NCBI GenBank assembly: GCA_964621445.1
Contig: CAZUNO010000002.1
Span: 32,001 to 96,000, forward strand
DNA: 64,000 nucleotides
Source: Candidatus Hadarchaeota archaeon
Lineage (GTDB): Archaea > CAYQAE01 > CAYVLA01
Reading direction: 5' to 3'
Under the pieces are notes generated by a model that saw nothing but the letters and a program-made list of their open reading frames with translations, was not told where the DNA came from and searched no databases. The position numbers and the translations under genes are program-made. Of the stretch, positions 17,174-52,008 are shown piece by piece. The first letter of the stretch is position 1, and the number at the start of each line of letters is the position of its first letter.

Positions 17174-18796
17174 ATGAGTAACGATAAAAAAACTAATTTT
17201 CTGTGGATATCATTTGAGGATACCAACCCCTTCTACGGTTGTTACGGTGACCACATCGCCCGCACTCCAAATCTTGATCGTCTTGCAGACGAGGGCTGCA
17301 TATGGACCAACGCATTCTCCACCGCGGGCGTTTGTGCACCCGCCCGCTCGGCCATAATAACCGGAATGTACCCCACCTCCATGGGCACTCATCACATGCG
17401 AACTACACATACCAACGAATTCGCTCCCGAATTACCCACCCCATACTCAGCCGTAGTTCCCCATTACGTAACCTGTTTCACCGAGTACCTGCGTGCAGCC
17501 GGTTACTACTGCACAAATAACGTTAAAACCGATTACCAGTTCGATCCCCCCTTAACGGCCTGGGATGAATTGAGCAAAAACGGACACTGGCGTAATCGTC
17601 CAGATACCGAGCAACCTTTTTTCTCGGTATTCAACCTGGGACGCACCCATGAAAGTGGCATGTGGCCAGAGAAATGCCCCGAAATAGCTTTTGACCCCGA
17701 TAAAATGGAATTGCCACCATATTTCCCGGACACGCCTAAGGTCCGCAGGGCCATGGCCCGAATGTATACCAACATCGAGCAGAACGACCGGGTTCTCGGG
17801 GATCTACTAGAACAACTTGAGGAAGACGGTCTGGCCGAGAATACGATAGTGTTTCACTGGAGCGATCACGGACCTCTGCCACGAGGCAAACGCTGGCCCT
17901 ATGATTCCGGTATCCGCATTCCAATGATAATCCGCTGGCCAGGTAGACTGGAACCCGGAAGCGTGAATGAGAATCTGGTTAGCACCATTGACCTCGGTCC
18001 CACTGTACTATCACTCGCCGAAATCGATATACCCTGGCATATGCAGGGGAAAGCATTTCTGGGATCACAAACCGGACCTAGCCGGGACTACATCTTTGCC
18101 AGCCGCGACCGGTATGACGAGTCCTATGACATGGTACGGGCCGTCCGGGACAAGCGCTTCAAGTACATCCGGAACTACTATCCTAACAAACCATACCTGC
18201 TCTGGATACCATACAGGAACAGGCATCCCATAGTACAGGAAATGTGGCGTTTGCACCTTGAGGACAAGCTAGAAGGAGCACAACGCCTGATGTTTCGGTC
18301 CCGGCCAGTAGAGGAACTCTATGATACACGACAGGATCCTCATGAAATTCATAATCTGGCGGATAACCCTGAATACCAACCGGAACTCAGGAGACTTCGT
18401 GAAGCCCTGGATGCTTGGATAAATGAGGTAGGGGACATGGGAGAAATCCCGGAAGAGGAGATGATACGCCGTTGGTACCCGACTGGGGAAAAACCACGCA
18501 CCGCGCCACCATTATTTATTCCTATCACTAAGGATAACCCAGGGAAGGACCCAGCCCCACGTGGGGGAGAATATCAAGGGCCTTTTCTCATTCAGATCTA
18601 TTGTGCCACGCAGGGGGCCTCTATCGCCTATACATTTGATCAGGATGATAACCCCCATTGGCTGCTCTATACAAAACCAATTCGATTACCAGAGGGCGAG
18701 AACAGGCTGAGAGCTAAAGCAATTCGAATTGGGTACACAGAAAGCACGGAAAGAGCGGCAACCTTTTCCGTATCTAACCACGGATTGCCAGCTTAA
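17174..18796 (+). CDS. Cys-type (formylglycine) sulfatase with a C-terminal chitobiase/Fn3-associated domain
   Basis: TPNLDRLA, CAPARSAIITG (CxPxR), SDHG, EELYD..DPHE..NLA; C-terminal TQGASIAYT...LRAKAIRIGY. Confidence 0.92.
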   Translation: MSNDKKTNFLWISFEDTNPFYGCYGDHIARTPNLDRLADEGCIWTNAFSTAGVCAPARSAIITGMYPTSMGTHHMRTTHTNEFAPELPTPYSAVVPHYVTCFTEYLRAAGYYCTNNVKTDYQFDPPLTAWDELSKNGHWRNRPDTEQPFFSVFNLGRTHESGMWPEKCPEIAFDPDKMELPPYFPDTPKVRRAMARMYTNIEQNDRVLGDLLEQLEEDGLAENTIVFHWSDHGPLPRGKRWPYDSGIRIPMIIRWPGRLEPGSVNENLVSTIDLGPTVLSLAEIDIPWHMQGKAFLGSQTGPSRDYIFASRDRYDESYDMVRAVRDKRFKYIRNYYPNKPYLLWIPYRNRHPIVQEMWRLHLEDKLEGAQRLMFRSRPVEELYDTRQDPHEIHNLADNPEYQPELRRLREALDAWINEVGDMGEIPEEEMIRRWYPTGEKPRTAPPLFIPITKDNPGKDPAPRGGEYQGPFLIQIYCATQGASIAYTFDQDDNPHWLLYTKPIRLPEGENRLRAKAIRIGYTESTERAATFSVSNHGLPA

Positions 18797-21216
18797 AGAT
18801 CCTCGATTATCAGGGGATGAGCTGGGTCAGTGATTAACCACTGGGGCAATCCCTTGTCAAGTGTAATGATCTCATAATTATCGGATTTATGCATCAGTAT
18901 CTTCCAGAACCCCGGTTTGGATTCCCCCCGCGAAATAAGGATATGGGAAGATGACCCATGAACCTTGGGATTTTCCAAGCACCCCATATGCTCCTCATCC
19001 GGGGAAAAGACATCGGCTTTAGCTCCACTCTTGCCAAGAATCAGGTTGAAGCTCTCCGTCCCTTCCGGTACGTGGAAATATAGGGGCAAATCTTCATCAA
19101 GGCACCTCCCATCCAGATCCAAGCCGTGAGGTGGAACATGGAAAGCCATCCAAGCACCGTTAACCCTCATTTTCTCCAAGGCTGCCATACGGTACGGAGC
19201 TCTAAGAAAATAGACCTTGTTTGCCTTTCCCTGGAAGGTAATTGACCTTCCTTCGGCCACCATCCCGGTGTCAATCGATTTGCCCTTTTCATCTGTCAAC
19301 ACGTATTGTATAAATTCGGCCCTTCTATGGAATCTCTCAATTTTGATCTTGACTGCTCCTTCGGACGAGCTGTATAGAAGCAAATCAATTCCACCCCTGC
19401 CCACTGGTACCAGGCAGTCCCTTGGACCTGTCTCACCCCCTATGGGCGGACTCTCCGTCACCGCCAACTCAGGGGGTTGAAAATCGATCTTTCTGGTTAT
19501 CCTACATCCCTCTCGCTGATTTGCAAGAAGCTCATCGATCTCATCCTCATCGAGGGTCAAAGGTGATTGGTAATCTGGCGGCAGGAAGCCGTAATCACGG
19601 AGGTTCCATTGGAGAAGTGACAAAACATGGCCAAAGATATCCAGCCTTTTTTGTTGACTTGCCTTCTTCTCCACGGATAAGGCATCGAGATAGCAGCTCT
19701 CGATCTCTGGATAGAGGGGGGCATATAACTCCTCCAAATGCCTCTCGGTGAGCAGGTATTTTGCACCTGAATTGCGGTTATAGAACCGAGAAAAGGCCCT
19801 ATCGAGGAGACCGAAGAGTCTCTCCACGGATTTCCCTGCTTCATAACCATAGGCCTTCAGGTAATATTCGTGGAGTATCTCCCTCGCATCCTGGTCCGGG
19901 TTCCATAGCAGTCTGGCAATGGTATAGTTACCGGGACCAGAAACGGGCCAGACTGGGTTACCGTAGATATATCCTCCCTTGAAGCCATATTTAGACATAT
20001 TTGAGAAGGTCGACTTCAGAAGCTCCGGTGACGGGGGGCATATTATCCCATTTGGTTGCACCAGGGTCGTCGGCAGATCATAGTAGTAGATATCGAAGCC
20101 GTGTTTTCTTGATAGTTCACTCCAATCTCCCCATATGGATTCGTCCCATCTTTGCTTGACCGAAGGACGATAGAGCCTGAAACCATAGGCAGGGCTATTG
20201 GGGATCACAAAGGCCAAGTTGGATTCAATATCCATTTCCTCGGAAGGCGGGTAACGATAATTCGCATACAGGTAACCCCCCAGCATGTGCTTCGGGAACT
20301 CCTTCTCCACAATCCGGGCCACATCGTTATAGAATTTCAAAACCAAAGGAGTAACCGAAATTTCACCATGGGGGTCAATTTCCTTAAGTGCCCCCGACTC
20401 CGGACTCTCGCTCCATGCCCCACCGTCGGCCGGTGATAGCGAGTACCACCGCCTTTTTGGATCCTCTCGAAATGCCTTGATGATTTTTTCGGCGAAATAT
20501 TGGACCATCTCCTGGTTCGTGGTCTCCAGCTTGTAGTATCGACCTATGGGCGGAACCCGATTTCCATCCCTCATGGCAAACCAGTCTGGGTGTTCATCGT
20601 AAAGAGAGGGAGGAACCGTCCTTATCCAACTATGATTATGCTCGATTGGGCAGACCTGGTGCAATTTCATGCGCTTATCCCATTCGTCCTCCAGAGGGGC
20701 TTTGTCTCTAAACGAAATAACGCGGTAATCAAAGGGTGGATGGTCTTCCCGGTCCATTTCGGGAATCACCAAATCTCCCATTTCCGTATATTCCTCCCCC
20801 ATCTCACCCGGCATTAGCCATCGGACTTCTAGATATTCCTCAATGAATGAATACACTCCATTGGAAGTACCATGATTCACTCCTCCCTTGTCGTTAAGCT
20901 CCCCATCTGGCGTGTCGGGACCTAGAATGAAGAGATTGGAATCGAGAGCTACAATTCTGTAGCCATCAATGGGAATCTCCGAAGGGTCCAGCCCCTCTTC
21001 CCTGGCTGCGGCAGTGTAACCCAAACTGATATACGGATTGGAAGGTGGCTGCTCGGTGGATATAACCTCGGGTAAAGCTCCAGTCACCTTTCCAAAATAA
21101 TTCCTTAGGTCCTTAGCCGCATTCCTTACGGATTCAGGAGCGGTTGGATCCAGGTAAATTGAATAATTGGTCTTTCTGTTCCGGACAATCGGGATTGATC
21201 CTCTTCCGGACTTCAA
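18793..21216 (-). CDS. DUF4838-domain protein with a C-terminal extension
   Basis: AAKDLRNYF.KVTG, GTSNGVYSFIEEYLEVRWLMPG, HPDWFA, SLSPADG, ARLLWNP; TTG start with AGGTG RBS. Confidence 0.8.
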   Translation of the reverse strand: MKSGRGSIPIVRNRKTNYSIYLDPTAPESVRNAAKDLRNYFGKVTGALPEVISTEQPPSNPYISLGYTAAAREEGLDPSEIPIDGYRIVALDSNLFILGPDTPDGELNDKGGVNHGTSNGVYSFIEEYLEVRWLMPGEMGEEYTEMGDLVIPEMDREDHPPFDYRVISFRDKAPLEDEWDKRMKLHQVCPIEHNHSWIRTVPPSLYDEHPDWFAMRDGNRVPPIGRYYKLETTNQEMVQYFAEKIIKAFREDPKRRWYSLSPADGGAWSESPESGALKEIDPHGEISVTPLVLKFYNDVARIVEKEFPKHMLGGYLYANYRYPPSEEMDIESNLAFVIPNSPAYGFRLYRPSVKQRWDESIWGDWSELSRKHGFDIYYYDLPTTLVQPNGIICPPSPELLKSTFSNMSKYGFKGGYIYGNPVWPVSGPGNYTIARLLWNPDQDAREILHEYYLKAYGYEAGKSVERLFGLLDRAFSRFYNRNSGAKYLLTERHLEELYAPLYPEIESCYLDALSVEKKASQQKRLDIFGHVLSLLQWNLRDYGFLPPDYQSPLTLDEDEIDELLANQREGCRITRKIDFQPPELAVTESPPIGGETGPRDCLVPVGRGGIDLLLYSSSEGAVKIKIERFHRRAEFIQYVLTDEKGKSIDTGMVAEGRSITFQGKANKVYFLRAPYRMAALEKMRVNGAWMAFHVPPHGLDLDGRCLDEDLPLYFHVPEGTESFNLILGKSGAKADVFSPDEEHMGCLENPKVHGSSSHILISRGESKPGFWKILMHKSDNYEIITLDKGLPQWLITDPAHPLIIEDL

Positions 21217-21321: not shown

Positions 21322-21460
21322 CGCTGGGGAGGGGATTTGAACCCCTGAAGCCTTTCGGCAACTGACTAGCTGCTCCGATCTGGATTAGCAGGCATACGCT
21401 GCTAAGCATCAGCGCCCTTCCAGATTGCCCGTGGATTTCTCCACACTAGGCGACCCCAGC
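21322..21460 (-). tRNA. tRNA-Ser(GCT) with three introns: 21425-21445 (position 15/16), 21394-21409 (29/30) and 21368-21385 (37/38); CCA not encoded
   Basis: The spliced 84-nt product is GCTGGGG TC GCCTAG^TCTGGAA GGGC G CTG^GC CTGCTA^A GTCAG TTGCCGAAAGGCTTC AGGGG TTCAAAT CCCCT CCCCAGC G. It has a 7-bp acceptor stem, a T-arm, a long variable arm and G73. Each intron folds into a BHB or BHL motif. Confidence 0.92.
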
Positions 21461-21485: not shown

Positions 21486-21500
21486 AAATAAATCTTTTCG
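21486..21500 (-). promoter_or_regulatory. BRE/TATA promoter of the tRNA-Ser gene
   Basis: Minus strand reads CGAAAAG-ATTTATTT, with the TATA ~26-33 nt upstream of G1. Confidence 0.65.
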
Positions 21501-21532: not shown

Positions 21533-23227
21533 TTAAACTGAATCCCCTACAAGAGATGTTGACAAATCTGAGGTTCCCTGTTTATCGTAGGGTAGAACCA
21601 GCATGAATTTCGTCCCCTTTCTAGTTTTTCTCCGGACATCGATGGTTCCGCCATGACCTTCCGCAATTTTCCTGCAAACGCACAGTCCGAACCCCTGCCC
21701 CTGTGCCTTCGTTGTAAACATGGGTTCGAAAATTCTATCCATATCCTCTTCGGGAATCCCTTCACCGGTATCACTAACGCTCATCTTAACGTTTCTGCCG
21801 TCAAAGGACGTGGATATGACGAGTTCTCCCCCATTGGGCATGGCCTGAAATGCGTTGGTTATGAGGTTAATGAGAACCCTTCTTATGAGATGAGGGTCCA
21901 CCTCGAATCCCTCCGGAGTGGGATCAATATCGGTTTGCACCGTCACATTATCAGGAACATCTACGGAATCGAGGACCTTCATAATGAAATCATGAACATC
22001 CACCGACTGAAGCTCAGGTCTTATGGGCCTAGCATAATCCTGAAGGTCGGAGACTATCTTGTTCATGTAACCGGCCCGCTTTTCAATCGTATCCAGCCGA
22101 TCCTTAACCTCCCTTAACGATCCCTTATCAAGTTCATTCTTAGCAAGATATAGGTTATTCACTATAACCTGCAGTGGATTCCGGAGGTCATGGCCAACCA
22201 TGGCCGTGGTCTCGCCGATAGCAGCCATTCGCTCCCTTTCCTTCAACTGCTTGGTCCTCTCCTCCACGAGCTGCTCCAAATGCTGCGAGTACTTCCTCAC
22301 CTTCTCTTCGGCCTCTTTCCTATCCGTTATATCCATTATTACTCCACGAAGCCCACTAAAATTTCCCTCATTCCATATGGGAATTGCACGCAATAAGACG
22401 GGGAAGGTGGAGCCATCTTTTCTTATTGCCGTAAACTCCCCTGGACCGATTTCTTGTTCCTCCACTAGTTTTCCTAATTCATTCTTCGCCTTCCCCCGAT
22501 CCTTCGGGGCCAACATATTAAACCCGTTTAGTCCGCGTTTAAGGTCTTCCTCACTGTAACCGAACATATTAAGAGCATTTTGATTCGTATAGGTCAAGTT
22601 TAGCTCCTCATCCGTTTCAAATATCGCCCCGGGCATCATATCGGCGACATTCCTGAAACGCTTCTCGCTTACCCTGCGACCCCACGAGGCCTCCTCCAAA
22701 CTTCTTGCAGAAAGCCACGCAACGGTCGCCAAAATAAAAAAACCAATCATGGCCATCACATTGGGGAATCTTTGACCAGCGGGTCCTAACCCCACAATGG
22801 TAATCGTTATGCTACATATGATGGCGAAAACAAAACTTGCCCATCGCCTCAATATGAAACTTGACAGTACTATAGGGATGGAGAAGAAGAAAACATTACG
22901 CCCGTCTGCAACTTCAACCGGGGAGTCGGAGAGAACGATGGCAATAATAAAGAGAAATAGTAATGCGAATGCCGCCGCTTCAACTGACCAATACCGGTAG
23001 AAGGCATATGTAAGCCCAATCGCCACGGTAATGATCCCAATCCCGATAAAAAGACTGCGTGTCTCCTTAGGCGAACCTACTTCCCCAAAGGATACCGCAA
23101 ATAACGTTATGATAAGGCCGACAATTAGGGCCATTGCCAGCGCTTCTAAAAAAAGCCGGACCAATCCCCTTCGCCGCTCACCTGGCATTTCGGATGAGAG
23201 ATTGCCTTGATTACTCAATCCATTCAC
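21533..23227 (-). CDS. Membrane-bound PAS sensor histidine kinase
   Basis: About 6 N-terminal TM helices, a PAS domain ending DITDRK, H-box VGHDLRNPLQ, N-box NLITNAFQAM, DTGEGI, FTTK, GFGL. Confidence 0.92.
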   Translation of the reverse strand: MNGLSNQGNLSSEMPGERRRGLVRLFLEALAMALIVGLIITLFAVSFGEVGSPKETRSLFIGIGIITVAIGLTYAFYRYWSVEAAAFALLFLFIIAIVLSDSPVEVADGRNVFFFSIPIVLSSFILRRWASFVFAIICSITITIVGLGPAGQRFPNVMAMIGFFILATVAWLSARSLEEASWGRRVSEKRFRNVADMMPGAIFETDEELNLTYTNQNALNMFGYSEEDLKRGLNGFNMLAPKDRGKAKNELGKLVEEQEIGPGEFTAIRKDGSTFPVLLRAIPIWNEGNFSGLRGVIMDITDRKEAEEKVRKYSQHLEQLVEERTKQLKERERMAAIGETTAMVGHDLRNPLQVIVNNLYLAKNELDKGSLREVKDRLDTIEKRAGYMNKIVSDLQDYARPIRPELQSVDVHDFIMKVLDSVDVPDNVTVQTDIDPTPEGFEVDPHLIRRVLINLITNAFQAMPNGGELVISTSFDGRNVKMSVSDTGEGIPEEDMDRIFEPMFTTKAQGQGFGLCVCRKIAEGHGGTIDVRRKTRKGTKFMLVLPYDKQGTSDLSTSLVGDSV

Positions 23228-49631: not shown

Positions 49632-50897
49632 TTGCCTGGGATGGGCCGCAAGAAAATAATCATTCTAGGTATGGGTAGGATAGGGCTACCCACTGCTGCA
49701 TGTCTAGCCAACGCTGGTCACCAGGTACTTGGAGTCGATATAGATCAACGAAAGGTTGCCGATATCCGCGAGGGGAGGATAGATGGCAAGGAACCTGGAT
49801 TATCCGAAATGGTACTATCGGCCATGGAGTCGGGGACCCTCCGCATTTCAACGGAGCCGGTCCGGGGCGACGTATTCCTGCTTTGCCTGCCCACCCTGCT
49901 CAAGGAGGATAGGACATGTGATCTATCGGCCATTTCCTCCGCGATGGACTCCATATCAAATGTCATCTCGCCGGGCAATCTGATTATCCTGGAATCCACC
50001 GTGCCGGTACATACCACCCGGGATTTCCTGATACCTGGGCTGGAAAAGAGAGGAGTGGACACCTGTAAGGTGCTCTTCGCTTATGCCCCGGAGAGAATAA
50101 TGTCGGGAAGAATGCTGGAAGAGATAAGGAAGGATGACCGGATAATCGGTGTCACAAGTGAAAAGGCTGCAAAACTAGCCAGAGAGGTGTACGAGAGCTT
50201 CGTTGAGGGGGACATTTTCATTACCGATACCTCCACGGCCGAATTGGTGAAGCTCGCGGAAAACACCTACAGAGACATAAACATAGCTTACGCCAACGAG
50301 GTCGCCCTCTTCTGTCAGCGGGAAGGGATCGATGCCCGACGTGCAATAGAGCTGGCCAATAGGCATCCCCGGGTTGAGATACATCGCCCAGGACCCGGAG
50401 TTGGAGGCCACTGCATACCCGTGGTCCCTCATTTCCTGGCCCAGAATAATAGCTACGATATGATGATAAAAGCGGCGAGAAAAGTAAACGAATCCATGCC
50501 GAGATATATAGCCAACATGATAACCAGGACCATAAGCGGAGCGGAGCAACCAAAGGTCTCCCTTATGGGCATGGCCTATAAGTCCGGCTCAGGGGACACC
50601 GTAAACAGCCCGGGATTACAGATTCTGGAGCATCTCCAGGGTGAGAGGATGGAAATTCTCCTATGCGACCCACTTGTAAGAAACCAGGAAATGGACCTTG
50701 TGGAAATGGAGGAGGCCCTTTCATCGGACTGCATCGTCTTTCTAGTCGCCCATCAGCAATTCAAGGAAATTGATCCACCCAAACCCAAGAAGGCCATGGC
50801 GACCGTCATAGATACCGCAAACTGCATAGAGCCGCGGAAATGGATCCGGCAAGGCTGGAAAATTAAACGTTTCGCATCCAAGAATCCTAAGGCTTAA
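49632..50897 (+). CDS. Nucleotide-sugar dehydrogenase (UDP-HexNAc 6-dehydrogenase, WecC/WbpA-like)
   Basis: GMGRIGLP, ESTVP, APER, KLAENTYRDINIA.ANE, PGPGVGGHCIP. Confidence 0.9.
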   Translation: MPGMGRKKIIILGMGRIGLPTAACLANAGHQVLGVDIDQRKVADIREGRIDGKEPGLSEMVLSAMESGTLRISTEPVRGDVFLLCLPTLLKEDRTCDLSAISSAMDSISNVISPGNLIILESTVPVHTTRDFLIPGLEKRGVDTCKVLFAYAPERIMSGRMLEEIRKDDRIIGVTSEKAAKLAREVYESFVEGDIFITDTSTAELVKLAENTYRDINIAYANEVALFCQREGIDARRAIELANRHPRVEIHRPGPGVGGHCIPVVPHFLAQNNSYDMMIKAARKVNESMPRYIANMITRTISGAEQPKVSLMGMAYKSGSGDTVNSPGLQILEHLQGERMEILLCDPLVRNQEMDLVEMEEALSSDCIVFLVAHQQFKEIDPPKPKKAMATVIDTANCIEPRKWIRQGWKIKRFASKNPKA

Positions 50898-52008
50898 CCC
50901 GGGCAAAGCTCAGCATCAAGGTCAAATCCCTATCGACATCAACCTGAGCCACCACGAACTTCTTCTTTACGCTGGCCGCCAACCTGCCCGCTCGAACGAT
51001 CTCCGTTGGCGTGATGTTGGCATCCTTGGGGAACACGTGGATCATAAAGGGGGCGTGGTCGATGCCGGGGCCGTATTCATATACCGCAAAATCCACTCCG
51101 AATTTCATTCCGGATTTTACGATCATTCCCGAGTCCTTCAATCCCTTATAAACCTGGTATCTCTCTCTGAAGTTCTTCTCCCTTGAACCTCTATCCATTA
51201 GATCCTGAGGACTCAGCTCCCTTTCCCCCTCCTTCAACTCCACCCTTCCCTTCTCGGTCAGGTAAAGGGCCTCGATGAATGATAATGTGATGGGCCTTTC
51301 AAAGGTCATGGACTTGGGTTTCCTGAGGCCTATCGGCTTTCCGAAATATCCTTCCTTGTAAAGACTGAGAGCCCCCGTGTGATCCCAAACCACCATCATG
51401 GGCCCCACCAGATCCGCGGAGTCACTCCTATCGGACGGTTCCTCCTCCATAGAGTTGGCATCGAATCTCCTGATTTCGTAGTAGGAGACCTCTCCCTCCT
51501 CATCAACCAGGGCCAGGTAAACTCCCTTTTTGTACCTTGCGCTCAATGATAGCAGTTTCTGAAGCTCGTCGAGGGGTATTCTCTTCTTGCGGGAGAATGA
51601 GGCAACAATATGAGAACAGGGCCTGGAGGGTTTCTCGTAGAAGAAAAGGTAAGGCATGTCATGCATTCCGGCCCGGACCTTTCTACCTTTACTCCTCAGA
51701 TCTCTGTATACCAGATATTTTAGGAATAACATGGGGTCGGATTGCCGCCCTCCGTGGAGCAATTCCTGAAAACTTACCTCTTTTCCCTCCTCAAGGACCT
51801 CGATGATACCCCGGCTTTGAAGATTTAGGGCTGCCACCTTTGGAAGAAGCACCCCTCCTCTTTCGGAGAAACCATATCCCATTTCCCTAAGAGGTGCTCC
51901 GTCCTCCACGAAGACCCCATCTGCCTCCATATTGGCCACAAAAACCTCTTGCTCCTGGGAACCCTCTTCGCCGATCTCTTCATCTACGTCTTCGCGCAAT
52001 GGATACAC
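50887..52008 (-). CDS. endA: tRNA-splicing endonuclease, fused structural + catalytic units
   Basis: N-unit YLVYRDLRSKG...LALVDEEGEVSYY; C-unit KSGMKFGVDFAVY..GPGIDHAP, RAGRLAASVKK (Tyr/His/Lys triad); insert GYFGKPIGLRKPK. Confidence 0.93.
   Translation of the reverse strand: MYPLREDVDEEIGEEGSQEQEVFVANMEADGVFVEDGAPLREMGYGFSERGGVLLPKVAALNLQSRGIIEVLEEGKEVSFQELLHGGRQSDPMLFLKYLVYRDLRSKGRKVRAGMHDMPYLFFYEKPSRPCSHIVASFSRKKRIPLDELQKLLSLSARYKKGVYLALVDEEGEVSYYEIRRFDANSMEEEPSDRSDSADLVGPMMVVWDHTGALSLYKEGYFGKPIGLRKPKSMTFERPITLSFIEALYLTEKGRVELKEGERELSPQDLMDRGSREKNFRERYQVYKGLKDSGMIVKSGMKFGVDFAVYEYGPGIDHAPFMIHVFPKDANITPTEIVRAGRLAASVKKKFVVAQVDVDRDLTLMLSFARVKP

Follow-up and report, generated by a model that had tools for sequence, protein, structure and literature searches.

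Does a serine tRNA gene that is divided by three introns serve as the working decoder of AGC and AGU codons in its host? This question is raised by a 139-nt locus within a 64,000-nt stretch of DNA (the window) from a Candidatus Hadarchaeota archaeon, for which an initial annotation had proposed a tRNA-Ser(GCU) gene interrupted at tRNA positions 15/16, 29/30 and 37/38. The analysis described here indicates that the locus is very probably the organism's working tRNA-Ser(GCU) gene, with three introns predicted to be spliced by endonuclease, because it is conserved among relatives, has a promoter-like element upstream, is the only Ser(GCU) gene that the searches turned up, and lies in a genome that encodes suitable enzymes. 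AGC and AGU together account for 8,932 of the 31,012 serine codons (28.8%) in 745 open reading frames of at least 400 codons. Since standard scanners miss the gene, an annotation that relied on them would leave this genome seemingly without a decoder for 29% of its serine codons.

Structure of the gene and its spliced product

The gene occupies positions 21322..21460 of the window on the minus strand, a detail of orientation that was absent from the initial annotation (the reverse complement of 21322-21460 is the 139-nt gene); it encodes no CCA, has G73 as the discriminator, and has full-length orthologs in all three of the other genomes of its family. Its parts, all on the minus strand and given from 5' to 3', are exon 1 (21446..21460; 15 nt, tRNA positions 1-15), intron 1 (21425..21445; 21 nt, at 15/16), exon 2 (21410..21424; 15 nt, positions 16-29), intron 2 (21394..21409; 16 nt, at 29/30), an 8-nt micro-exon 3 that contains the anticodon GCU (21386..21393; positions 30-37), intron 3 (21368..21385; 18 nt, at the canonical site 37/38), and exon 4 (21322..21367; 46 nt, positions 38-73), which holds the extra arm, the T arm and the 3' acceptor strand.

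Each intron has a central helix in which 4/4 pairs form, and the splice sites lie within 3-nt bulges. In intron 1 the helix is GCCU/GGGC, the 5' bulge is AG^U and the inner hairpin is GUGGA-GAAA-UCCAC, and the 3' site, AA^U, has no closing outer helix, which makes this a relaxed HBh' (BHL) motif. Intron 2 forms a BHB motif from the helix GCGC/GCGU, the bulges UG^A and AU^G, the inner UGC-UUA-GCA and a short outer helix, GG/CC, and intron 3 forms another from the helix CUGC/GCAG, the bulges UA^A and CU^A and the inner UCC-AGAUC-GGA. Every motif quoted in the initial annotation was located in the sequence, together with the intron lengths of 21, 16 and 18 nt at the three sites, and the exon coordinates match the 8 nt it had given for exon 3.

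When the four exons are joined by coordinate with a script, the result is an 84-nt class-II tRNA with a standard cloverleaf. It contains a 7-bp acceptor stem, U8, A14, G18G19, a 5-bp anticodon stem, the anticodon loop CUGCUAA with anticodon GCU, a 15-nt extra arm with a 3-bp stem, the T-loop UUCAAAU and G73; SerRS identifies its tRNAs by the long extra arm and G73. The earlier prediction that removal of all three introns would give a normal 84-nt serine tRNA holds in that ARAGORN calls the joined exons tRNA-Ser(gct) [1,84], and it makes no call on the unspliced 139 nt. At the level of sequence, the locus has every feature by which archaeal BHB-intron tRNA genes are defined.

The genes on either side of the locus, both on the minus strand, encode an 807-aa DUF4838 protein (18793-21216) and a 564-aa PAS/HisKA/HATPase histidine kinase (21533-23227), neither of which has an evident connection to the tRNA gene. 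A run of five T's lies 3' of the Ser(GCU) gene in the window's genome only.

Scanner behavior and the choice among excision schemes

Conventional searches pass over the locus. ARAGORN found no tRNA in the whole window, Rfam returned no match at gathering score, and in E-value mode the top tRNA-like candidate at the locus was tRNA-Sec, whose 14.8 bits fall short of the gathering score of 47. The initial annotation had described multi-intron tRNAs as rare, best known from Thermoproteales and easily missed by scanners, a description that agrees with the cited passages of three published accounts (PMC8450103, PMC4033280, PMC4090602); the host of the present three-intron gene is not a member of the Thermoproteales.

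Acceptance of the spliced product by ARAGORN is weak evidence when taken alone, because the program also accepts 779 of 5758 alternative excision schemes for the Ser(GCU) locus. As a judge of such schemes it was rejected as too permissive (a single 54-nt excision, for example, is read as 'Ser(gga)'), and it was replaced for ranking by a custom structural score. Across all excision schemes, the one with introns at 15/16, 29/30 and 37/38 had the top score, 24, tied with one alternative that differs in intron 1.

In a rival reading that takes in this alternative, the D-loop would be processed otherwise: either intron 1 would consist of precursor positions 24-42, leaving an 11-nt D-loop, AGUGUGGAGAA, or the hairpin would be retained as an enlarged D-arm and the gene would have two introns. 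The 24-42 scheme equals the three-intron scheme at a score of 24, and intron 1, which lacks an outer helix, is the weakest of the three motifs. However, the alternative helix, UGGA/UCUG, contains two G-U pairs, and the stretch that would become part of the D-loop varies among orthologs (GAAA, GCAA, UCUUC), unlike a D-loop. The junction AG|UCUGG, by comparison, creates the D-loop AGUCUGGAA, which matches the AGCCUGG of the Ser(GCU) gene in the one genome of the sister family (G004) and of Ser genes in Nitrosocosmicus and Thermofilum, and Ser(GGA) genes of Bathyarchaeia and the Arg(UCU) gene of G004 likewise combine a GCCU/GGGM helix with the 3' site AA^U.

Natural forms of the gene that lack one or more of the introns bear directly on this choice. 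The G004 Ser(GCU) gene (L228, G004:C2:5155-5254, minus strand) is 100 nt long and has a single intron, 16 nt at 29/30; its D-loop, AGCCUGGUA (with AGCCUGG unbroken), and its anticodon loop, CUGCUAA, are uninterrupted, so introns 1 and 3 are missing. The Ser(GCU) gene of a named Hecatellales MAG has the 15/16 intron only and is without introns 2 and 3. Together these forms fix all three junctions, and they also favor the intron-1 boundaries given above over the 24-42 alternative. A different processing of the D-loop is accordingly judged improbable, and excision of three introns at 15/16, 29/30 and 37/38 is the scheme adopted below.

Conservation among relatives

The collection searched holds five species genomes of this phylum, with microbial-mat and hypersaline-lake metagenomes as sources. 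When 61 genomes were searched at the DNA level, the whole gene (1-139, at 88-89% identity) was matched only in the window's genome and in 3/3 other genomes of its family, which are 91-100% complete and all of which have the three introns. By aligning the four genes, it was found that only 4/85 exon columns vary versus 23/58 intron columns (Fisher p 3e-7, for kin that are not independent), and that within the introns 6/34 paired columns vary versus 17/24 unpaired ones. The proposed pairs hold in 98.1% of 160 cells versus 40-49% when the partners are slid by 1-3 columns; as a point against the reading, the intron-1 helix of the G002 ortholog has 3/4 pairs. Changes on both sides of a pair occur in 1/40 pairs, and 250/500 shuffles reach the observed score in this set of only four close relatives. 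In these four genes the helices persist because their columns stay constant, without formal covariation support.

The flanks of the four genes are unalike except for one upstream element, and 1/24 of the columns immediately upstream is invariant. The element, GAAAAGATTTATTT, lies at 21486..21498 on the minus strand, 26-38 nt upstream of the mature 5' end. The form RAAAGATTTAWYT is found in 4/4 orthologs at 26-38 nt upstream of position 1, within 2 nt. It looks like an archaeal BRE plus TATA box, and is thus a putative promoter.

Sequencing runs provided additional copies of the locus. A 501-nt stretch recurs letter for letter in contigs from two runs, both of which belong to one study and may be the source of the window's DNA. 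A relative from a run of a second study (X4) has diverged over 472 nt by 4 indels and 35 listed substitutions, of which three fall within the gene, all of them intronic and none exonic: 21377 and 21381, in the loop of intron 3, and 21394, in the 3' bulge of intron 2; the upstream element is unchanged. Among the DNA contigs of the runs examined, none joins across an intron, and of the runs recorded as carrying the window's DNA none is of RNA.

These copies also bear on whether the locus could be a chance resemblance or an artefact of assembly. The permissiveness of ARAGORN toward artificial schemes is the one result that speaks for such an explanation. Against it stand the identical 501-nt stretch in two runs, even if these gave rise to the assembled DNA, the diverged copy in a run of the second study, and the orthologs in three other genomes. 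The probability that a 4/4 helix (G-U allowed) arises at a fixed pair of sites was put at p ~0.02 by the author's arithmetic, without a tool, and the corresponding arithmetic for three such helices at the exact sites that restore a cloverleaf gives p ~8e-6. Chance resemblance is excluded by this value, and conservation across genomes adds to the case, so that chance or artefact is hardly conceivable as an explanation of the locus.

An additional regularity involves the anticodon itself. At the canonical intron, anticodon position 35 faces an intron base that is G in the four Ser(GCU) genes, which have C35, and U or C in two Ser(GGA) genes of Bathyarchaeia, which have G35. The intron base at the canonical site thus tracks the anticodon, and this covariation was counted in favor of a working gene.

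The search for another Ser(GCU) gene

The initial annotation had named the existence of another Ser(GCU) gene as a point to check, and four routes through the assembly of the window's genome (3.2 Mb in 89 contigs, 96.2% complete) failed to find one. ARAGORN with introns allowed (-i) made 42 calls over the whole assembly, 0 of them gct; RF00005 at E <=0.01 gave 38 matches with no further Ser(GCU); and BLAST of the joined exons returned no match longer than 21 nt outside the locus. A relaxed scan for T arms and acceptor stems, which requires a standard T arm and an intact acceptor stem and lets genes disrupted there escape, added 232 candidates, among which 20 strings with YTGCTR were present and none was tRNA-like by eye.

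Several individual calls were considered and set aside along the way. Two low-scoring 'GCT' solutions of the scan proved to be a Ser(CGA) gene with a canonical intron (C9:91782) and a sequence without a tRNA-like D arm (C20:27104). In addition, three ARAGORN calls were reassigned by eye, 'Ser(tga)' on C3 to Thr(UGU), 'Ser(gga)' on C7 to Arg(UCU), and 'Leu(gag)' on C6:118610 to Ser(UGA).

The outcome of these searches can be used to weigh the possibility that the interrupted gene is decaying or silent, with insertions that are never removed, and that the Ser(GCU) gene in use is missing from the assembly. The assembly does leave room for a missing gene, at 96.2% completeness and in 89 contigs. 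On the other hand, a silent gene fits poorly with exons that are near-invariant and motif helices that persist in five lineages whose flanks have diverged without constraint, or with the conservation of the promoter-like element; no other candidate emerged by any of the four routes, and the same arrangement is present in 3/3 sister genomes of 91-100% completeness. A decayed or silent locus is therefore considered very improbable, and the gene is treated in what follows as the probable working Ser(GCU) gene.

Other tRNA genes of the same genome

A strict version of the T-arm and acceptor scan identified 42 loci, ~35 of which are convincing tRNAs. By heuristic means and by eye, without a dedicated program, ~12 of these were assigned no intron, ~17 one, five two, and Ser(GCU) alone three; the two-intron genes under the same assignment are Ser(GGA), Tyr(GUA), Glu(UUC), Lys(CUU) and Leu(UAG). 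Several of the introns interrupt the D-loop or the variable region or are placed at 29/30 or 30/31, and the Arg(UCU) gene, parsed by eye, has a 16-nt intron at 29/30.

Two other tRNA genes of this genome have unusual features of their own. Intron-less class-II genes at G000:C15:2241-2324 (plus strand; L199:1001-1084) and G000:C45:5941-6025 (plus strand; L198:1001-1085) combine a serine-like body (long extra arm, G73, 3-bp D-stem) with the loop UUGAAAA and the anticodon GAA, which corresponds to Phe codons, and score 44.8 and 55.1 bits, respectively, against RF00005 with the GAA loop register. It is possible that they accept serine and read Phe codons. The genome also has a class-I Phe(GAA) gene of the normal kind, with its intron at the canonical site (C19:16867-16957). 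A DNA search did not find the C15 and C45 genes in the other four genomes of the phylum (G001-G004), and their exact 19-letter anticodon arm has matches elsewhere at 9 bacterial loci, where ARAGORN makes no tRNA call. Nearby are an integrase-core open reading frame, at 1 kb from the C45 copy, and a PIN-domain open reading frame, which adjoins the C15 copy. A further 78-nt tRNA-like sequence (G000:C85:173-250, minus strand) has a serine-like acceptor stem and T arm, scores 41.4 bits against RF00005 and is called 'Pro(agg)' by ARAGORN; it contains a 5-bp hairpin with a tetraloop, and a regular anticodon arm could not be drawn for it.

The same three intron sites in other genomes

The combination of introns at 15/16, 29/30 and 37/38 also occurs in other tRNA genes. 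A covariance-model search recovered mostly ordinary class-II tRNAs of 45-59 bits, and among its matches of at least 130 nt the one on G004:C6 was examined. The Arg(UCU) gene of G004 (L227, G004:C6:6221-6370, minus strand) has introns of 26, 17 and 32 nt at these three sites, each with a 4/4 helix. In named Bathyarchaeia MAGs, two Ser(GGA) genes of 151 nt (L032:475-625 and L059:3549-3699, both on the minus strand) have introns at the same sites; once joined, their exons are called Ser(gga), and before splicing the genes go unrecognized. The L032 gene and that of the window are identical from the 3' end of intron 2 into the start of exon 3 (CAGCGTAT^GCCTG). In a search of contigs with GGCGC..CAGCGTATGCCTG, L032 was the only relevant one among the matches listed, which included chance bacterial ones.

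The distribution of introns between two of these tRNAs is reversed across the families, as Ser(GCU) has three in the window's family and one in G004, and for Arg(UCU) the counts are one for the window's genome and three for G004. Ser(GCU), Arg(UCU) and Ser(GGA) have in common the D-stem GCCU/GGGC, which the 3' end of intron 1 mimics. Movement of introns between similar tRNA genes has been proposed for the Thermoproteales, as cited in PMC4090602. The pattern of sites described here fits such movement between similar tRNA genes, and it fits reciprocal loss equally.

These observations permit a tentative, broader proposal, which is rather less likely to be right than wrong as a whole: that a pair of EndA enzymes accompanied a build-up of introns in this family, that 15/16, 29/30 and 37/38 form a transferable set, and that introns moved between tRNAs sharing the GCCU/GGGC D-stem, or else were lost reciprocally. 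If true, these genomes would serve as a natural setting in which to test whether introns transpose and whether EndA co-evolves with its substrates. The reversed intron counts of Ser(GCU) and Arg(UCU), along with the 8-nt micro-exon that carries the anticodon, also raise questions about how introns spread and in what order they are removed.

Candidate splicing enzymes

The window itself encodes an α'-type, two-unit EndA (50887..52008, minus strand), listed as a 373-aa open reading frame, with a true start that may be internal to it. The Pfam N and C domains each appear twice in this single frame, the second unit is catalytic, and residues 38-354 can be aligned to 1R0V and 3P1Y, which are chains of the A. 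fulgidus type. The catalytic unit is closest to the A. pernix EndA (3P1Z, E 3.9e-43), with an alignment that is gap-free through the Crenarchaea-specific loop and has Lys at the K44 and R46 positions; K44 of the A. pernix enzyme is described as conferring broad specificity in the cited portion of PMC3241643. In the related genome G001, an α'-type EndA homologue lies ~32 kb from Ser(GCU) on one contig, as in the window.

A second EndA, of the ε-type, is encoded elsewhere in the window's genome (G000:C9:28620-29768, plus strand; L075:1129-2280) and is a three-unit, ARMAN-2-like protein. Residues 125-507 align over the full length of the ARMAN-2 structure (residues 13-387 of 4FZ2, E 4.6e-74), with the same three-unit protomer, αN-α-βC, and in this alignment the catalytic residues Y236/H251/K282 and the specificity-loop K161 are all identical (ARMAN-2 EndA numbering as given in the passages cited from PMC3488258 and PMC6379350). 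The genome also encodes RtcB (609 bits). By homology, both EndA proteins are of the broad-specificity type, each with a specificity loop and its Lys, and are candidates for acting on relaxed motifs, and an RtcB is present.

The distribution of the ε-type enzyme is patchy. It is found in 3/3 family genomes, and in G004 a query with the C9 protein did not find it, the only match being a 190-aa single-unit protein. At E <=1e-30 it occurs in 21/301 archaeal genomes, consisting of 4 of this family (2.4-4.0 Mb) and 17 of 0.7-1.1 Mb; a search for related loci with the ε-type EndA gave one relative, of the same family. A 2018 paper (PMC5829648) gave Micrarchaeum and a close relative as the only known holders of ε-type EndA. 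Its presence in a 3.2-Mb genome, as seen from these sequences, suggests transfer or patchy retention, and adds a large-genome archaeon to the hosts of this enzyme type.

Folding of the precursor and a proposed splicing pathway

The three bulge-helix motifs can coexist in one structure, which has a free energy of -50.5 kcal/mol with standard pairs only and with the GG/CC outer helix of intron 2 left open. The minimum free energy (MFE) of the 139-nt precursor is -61.3 kcal/mol (z -3.38; 0/200 shuffles fold as well), and this fold includes the helix and hairpin of intron 1, yet it pairs the D-loop with intron 3. The three-motif fold thus lies 10.8 kcal/mol above the MFE, which counts against the proposed structure.

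The competing interaction in the MFE structure pairs the D-loop AUCUGGA (precursor 36-42) with the start of intron 3, UCCAGAU (77-83), over 7 bp. The A-to-G change at precursor position 80 in relatives retains a U-G pair within it. As a feature of a predicted fold, this pairing could be accidental, or it could delay formation of the D-arm until splicing.

The anatomy and conservation of the gene and the presence of the enzymes are direct observations; transcription, cleavage, the order of removal and charging are steps that we infer, in the following form. Transcription would begin a few bases before position 1 from the BRE/TATA-type promoter, and the precursor would fold so that each intron presents both splice sites in 3-nt bulges flanking a 4-bp helix. 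Splicing endonuclease would then cut at six sites, with the ε-type EndA and the α'-type EndA with its Crenarchaea-type loop as candidates, and RtcB would ligate the four exons. The product would undergo CCA addition, and SerRS would charge it by way of the long extra arm and G73.

The micro-exon places a constraint on the order of these events. After cuts at both of the flanking introns, exon 3 would be held by two base pairs only, and two helices, the outer one of intron 2 and the central one of intron 3, compete for C32. Because of these two features, the introns are probably removed stepwise, by cutting and rejoining at one intron before the next.

Comparison with known systems

In archaea, tRNA genes that carry as many as three BHB-type introns have been on record, chiefly in Thermoproteales, since 2007-2008, according to the cited passages of PMC4033280, PMC8450103 and PMC4090602; in Pyrobaculum islandicum tRNA-Pro(UGG), for example, the same sources place the introns at 25/26, 37/38 and 56/57 (PMC4090602, PMC4033280, PMC8450103). 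The gene in the window resembles the Thermoproteales multi-intron genes, as these are described there, in having three short introns (the known maximum), one canonical and two not, in combining BHB with relaxed HBh' motifs, and in being missed by ordinary scanners. Of its non-canonical sites, 29/30 is a listed one, and 15/16 is absent from the site list quoted from PMC4090602, which ends 'etc.'. Unlike the Thermoproteales genes, it comes from a sparsely sampled phylum, in a genome whose enzymes are of the ε- and α'-types, not (α-β)2. The full-text literature searched yielded no description of this gene or of three-intron tRNAs in Hadarchaeota-labelled or Bathyarchaeia genomes, and supplements to published surveys may list the 15/16 site or this lineage.

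Other multi-intron systems lie at a greater distance. Intron-rich tRNA sets are reported, in the text cited, for the Asgard Atabeyarchaeia and Freyarchaeia (PMC11291895), which are likewise outside the Thermoproteales but belong to a different phylum. In the red alga Cyanidioschyzon merolae, the nuclear tRNA-Ile(UAU) is described as having three introns (PMC9602550); like the gene studied here, it has introns in the D arm and the anticodon arm and BHB-dependent removal, but it is eukaryotic and its third intron is in the T arm.

The enzymes can be placed in a similar way. The C9 protein has ~40% identity to the ε2 EndA of ARMAN-2 (Candidatus Micrarchaeum acidiphilum; 4FZ2) over a full-length alignment, and the relaxed, non-canonical introns in the window's genome are as expected for an ε-type enzyme from what is stated in the cited parts of PMC3488258 and PMC6379350; the differences from ARMAN-2 are a host genome of 3.2 Mb and the occurrence of the ε-type enzyme alongside a second EndA. 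That second EndA is two-unit like the A. fulgidus enzyme and has Lys at the K44 position like the A. pernix (α-β)2 EndA. As predicted from its sequence, it would be the natural counterpart of the engineered A. fulgidus α'2 chimera with a Crenarchaea loop (3P1Y), as that construct is presented in PMC3241643.

The kind of gene analyzed here is thus already known, and its interest lies mainly in the lineage that carries it, in the two endonucleases found alongside and in the three intron sites that recur together. In this way, the locus adds a conserved three-intron tRNA gene outside the Thermoproteales.
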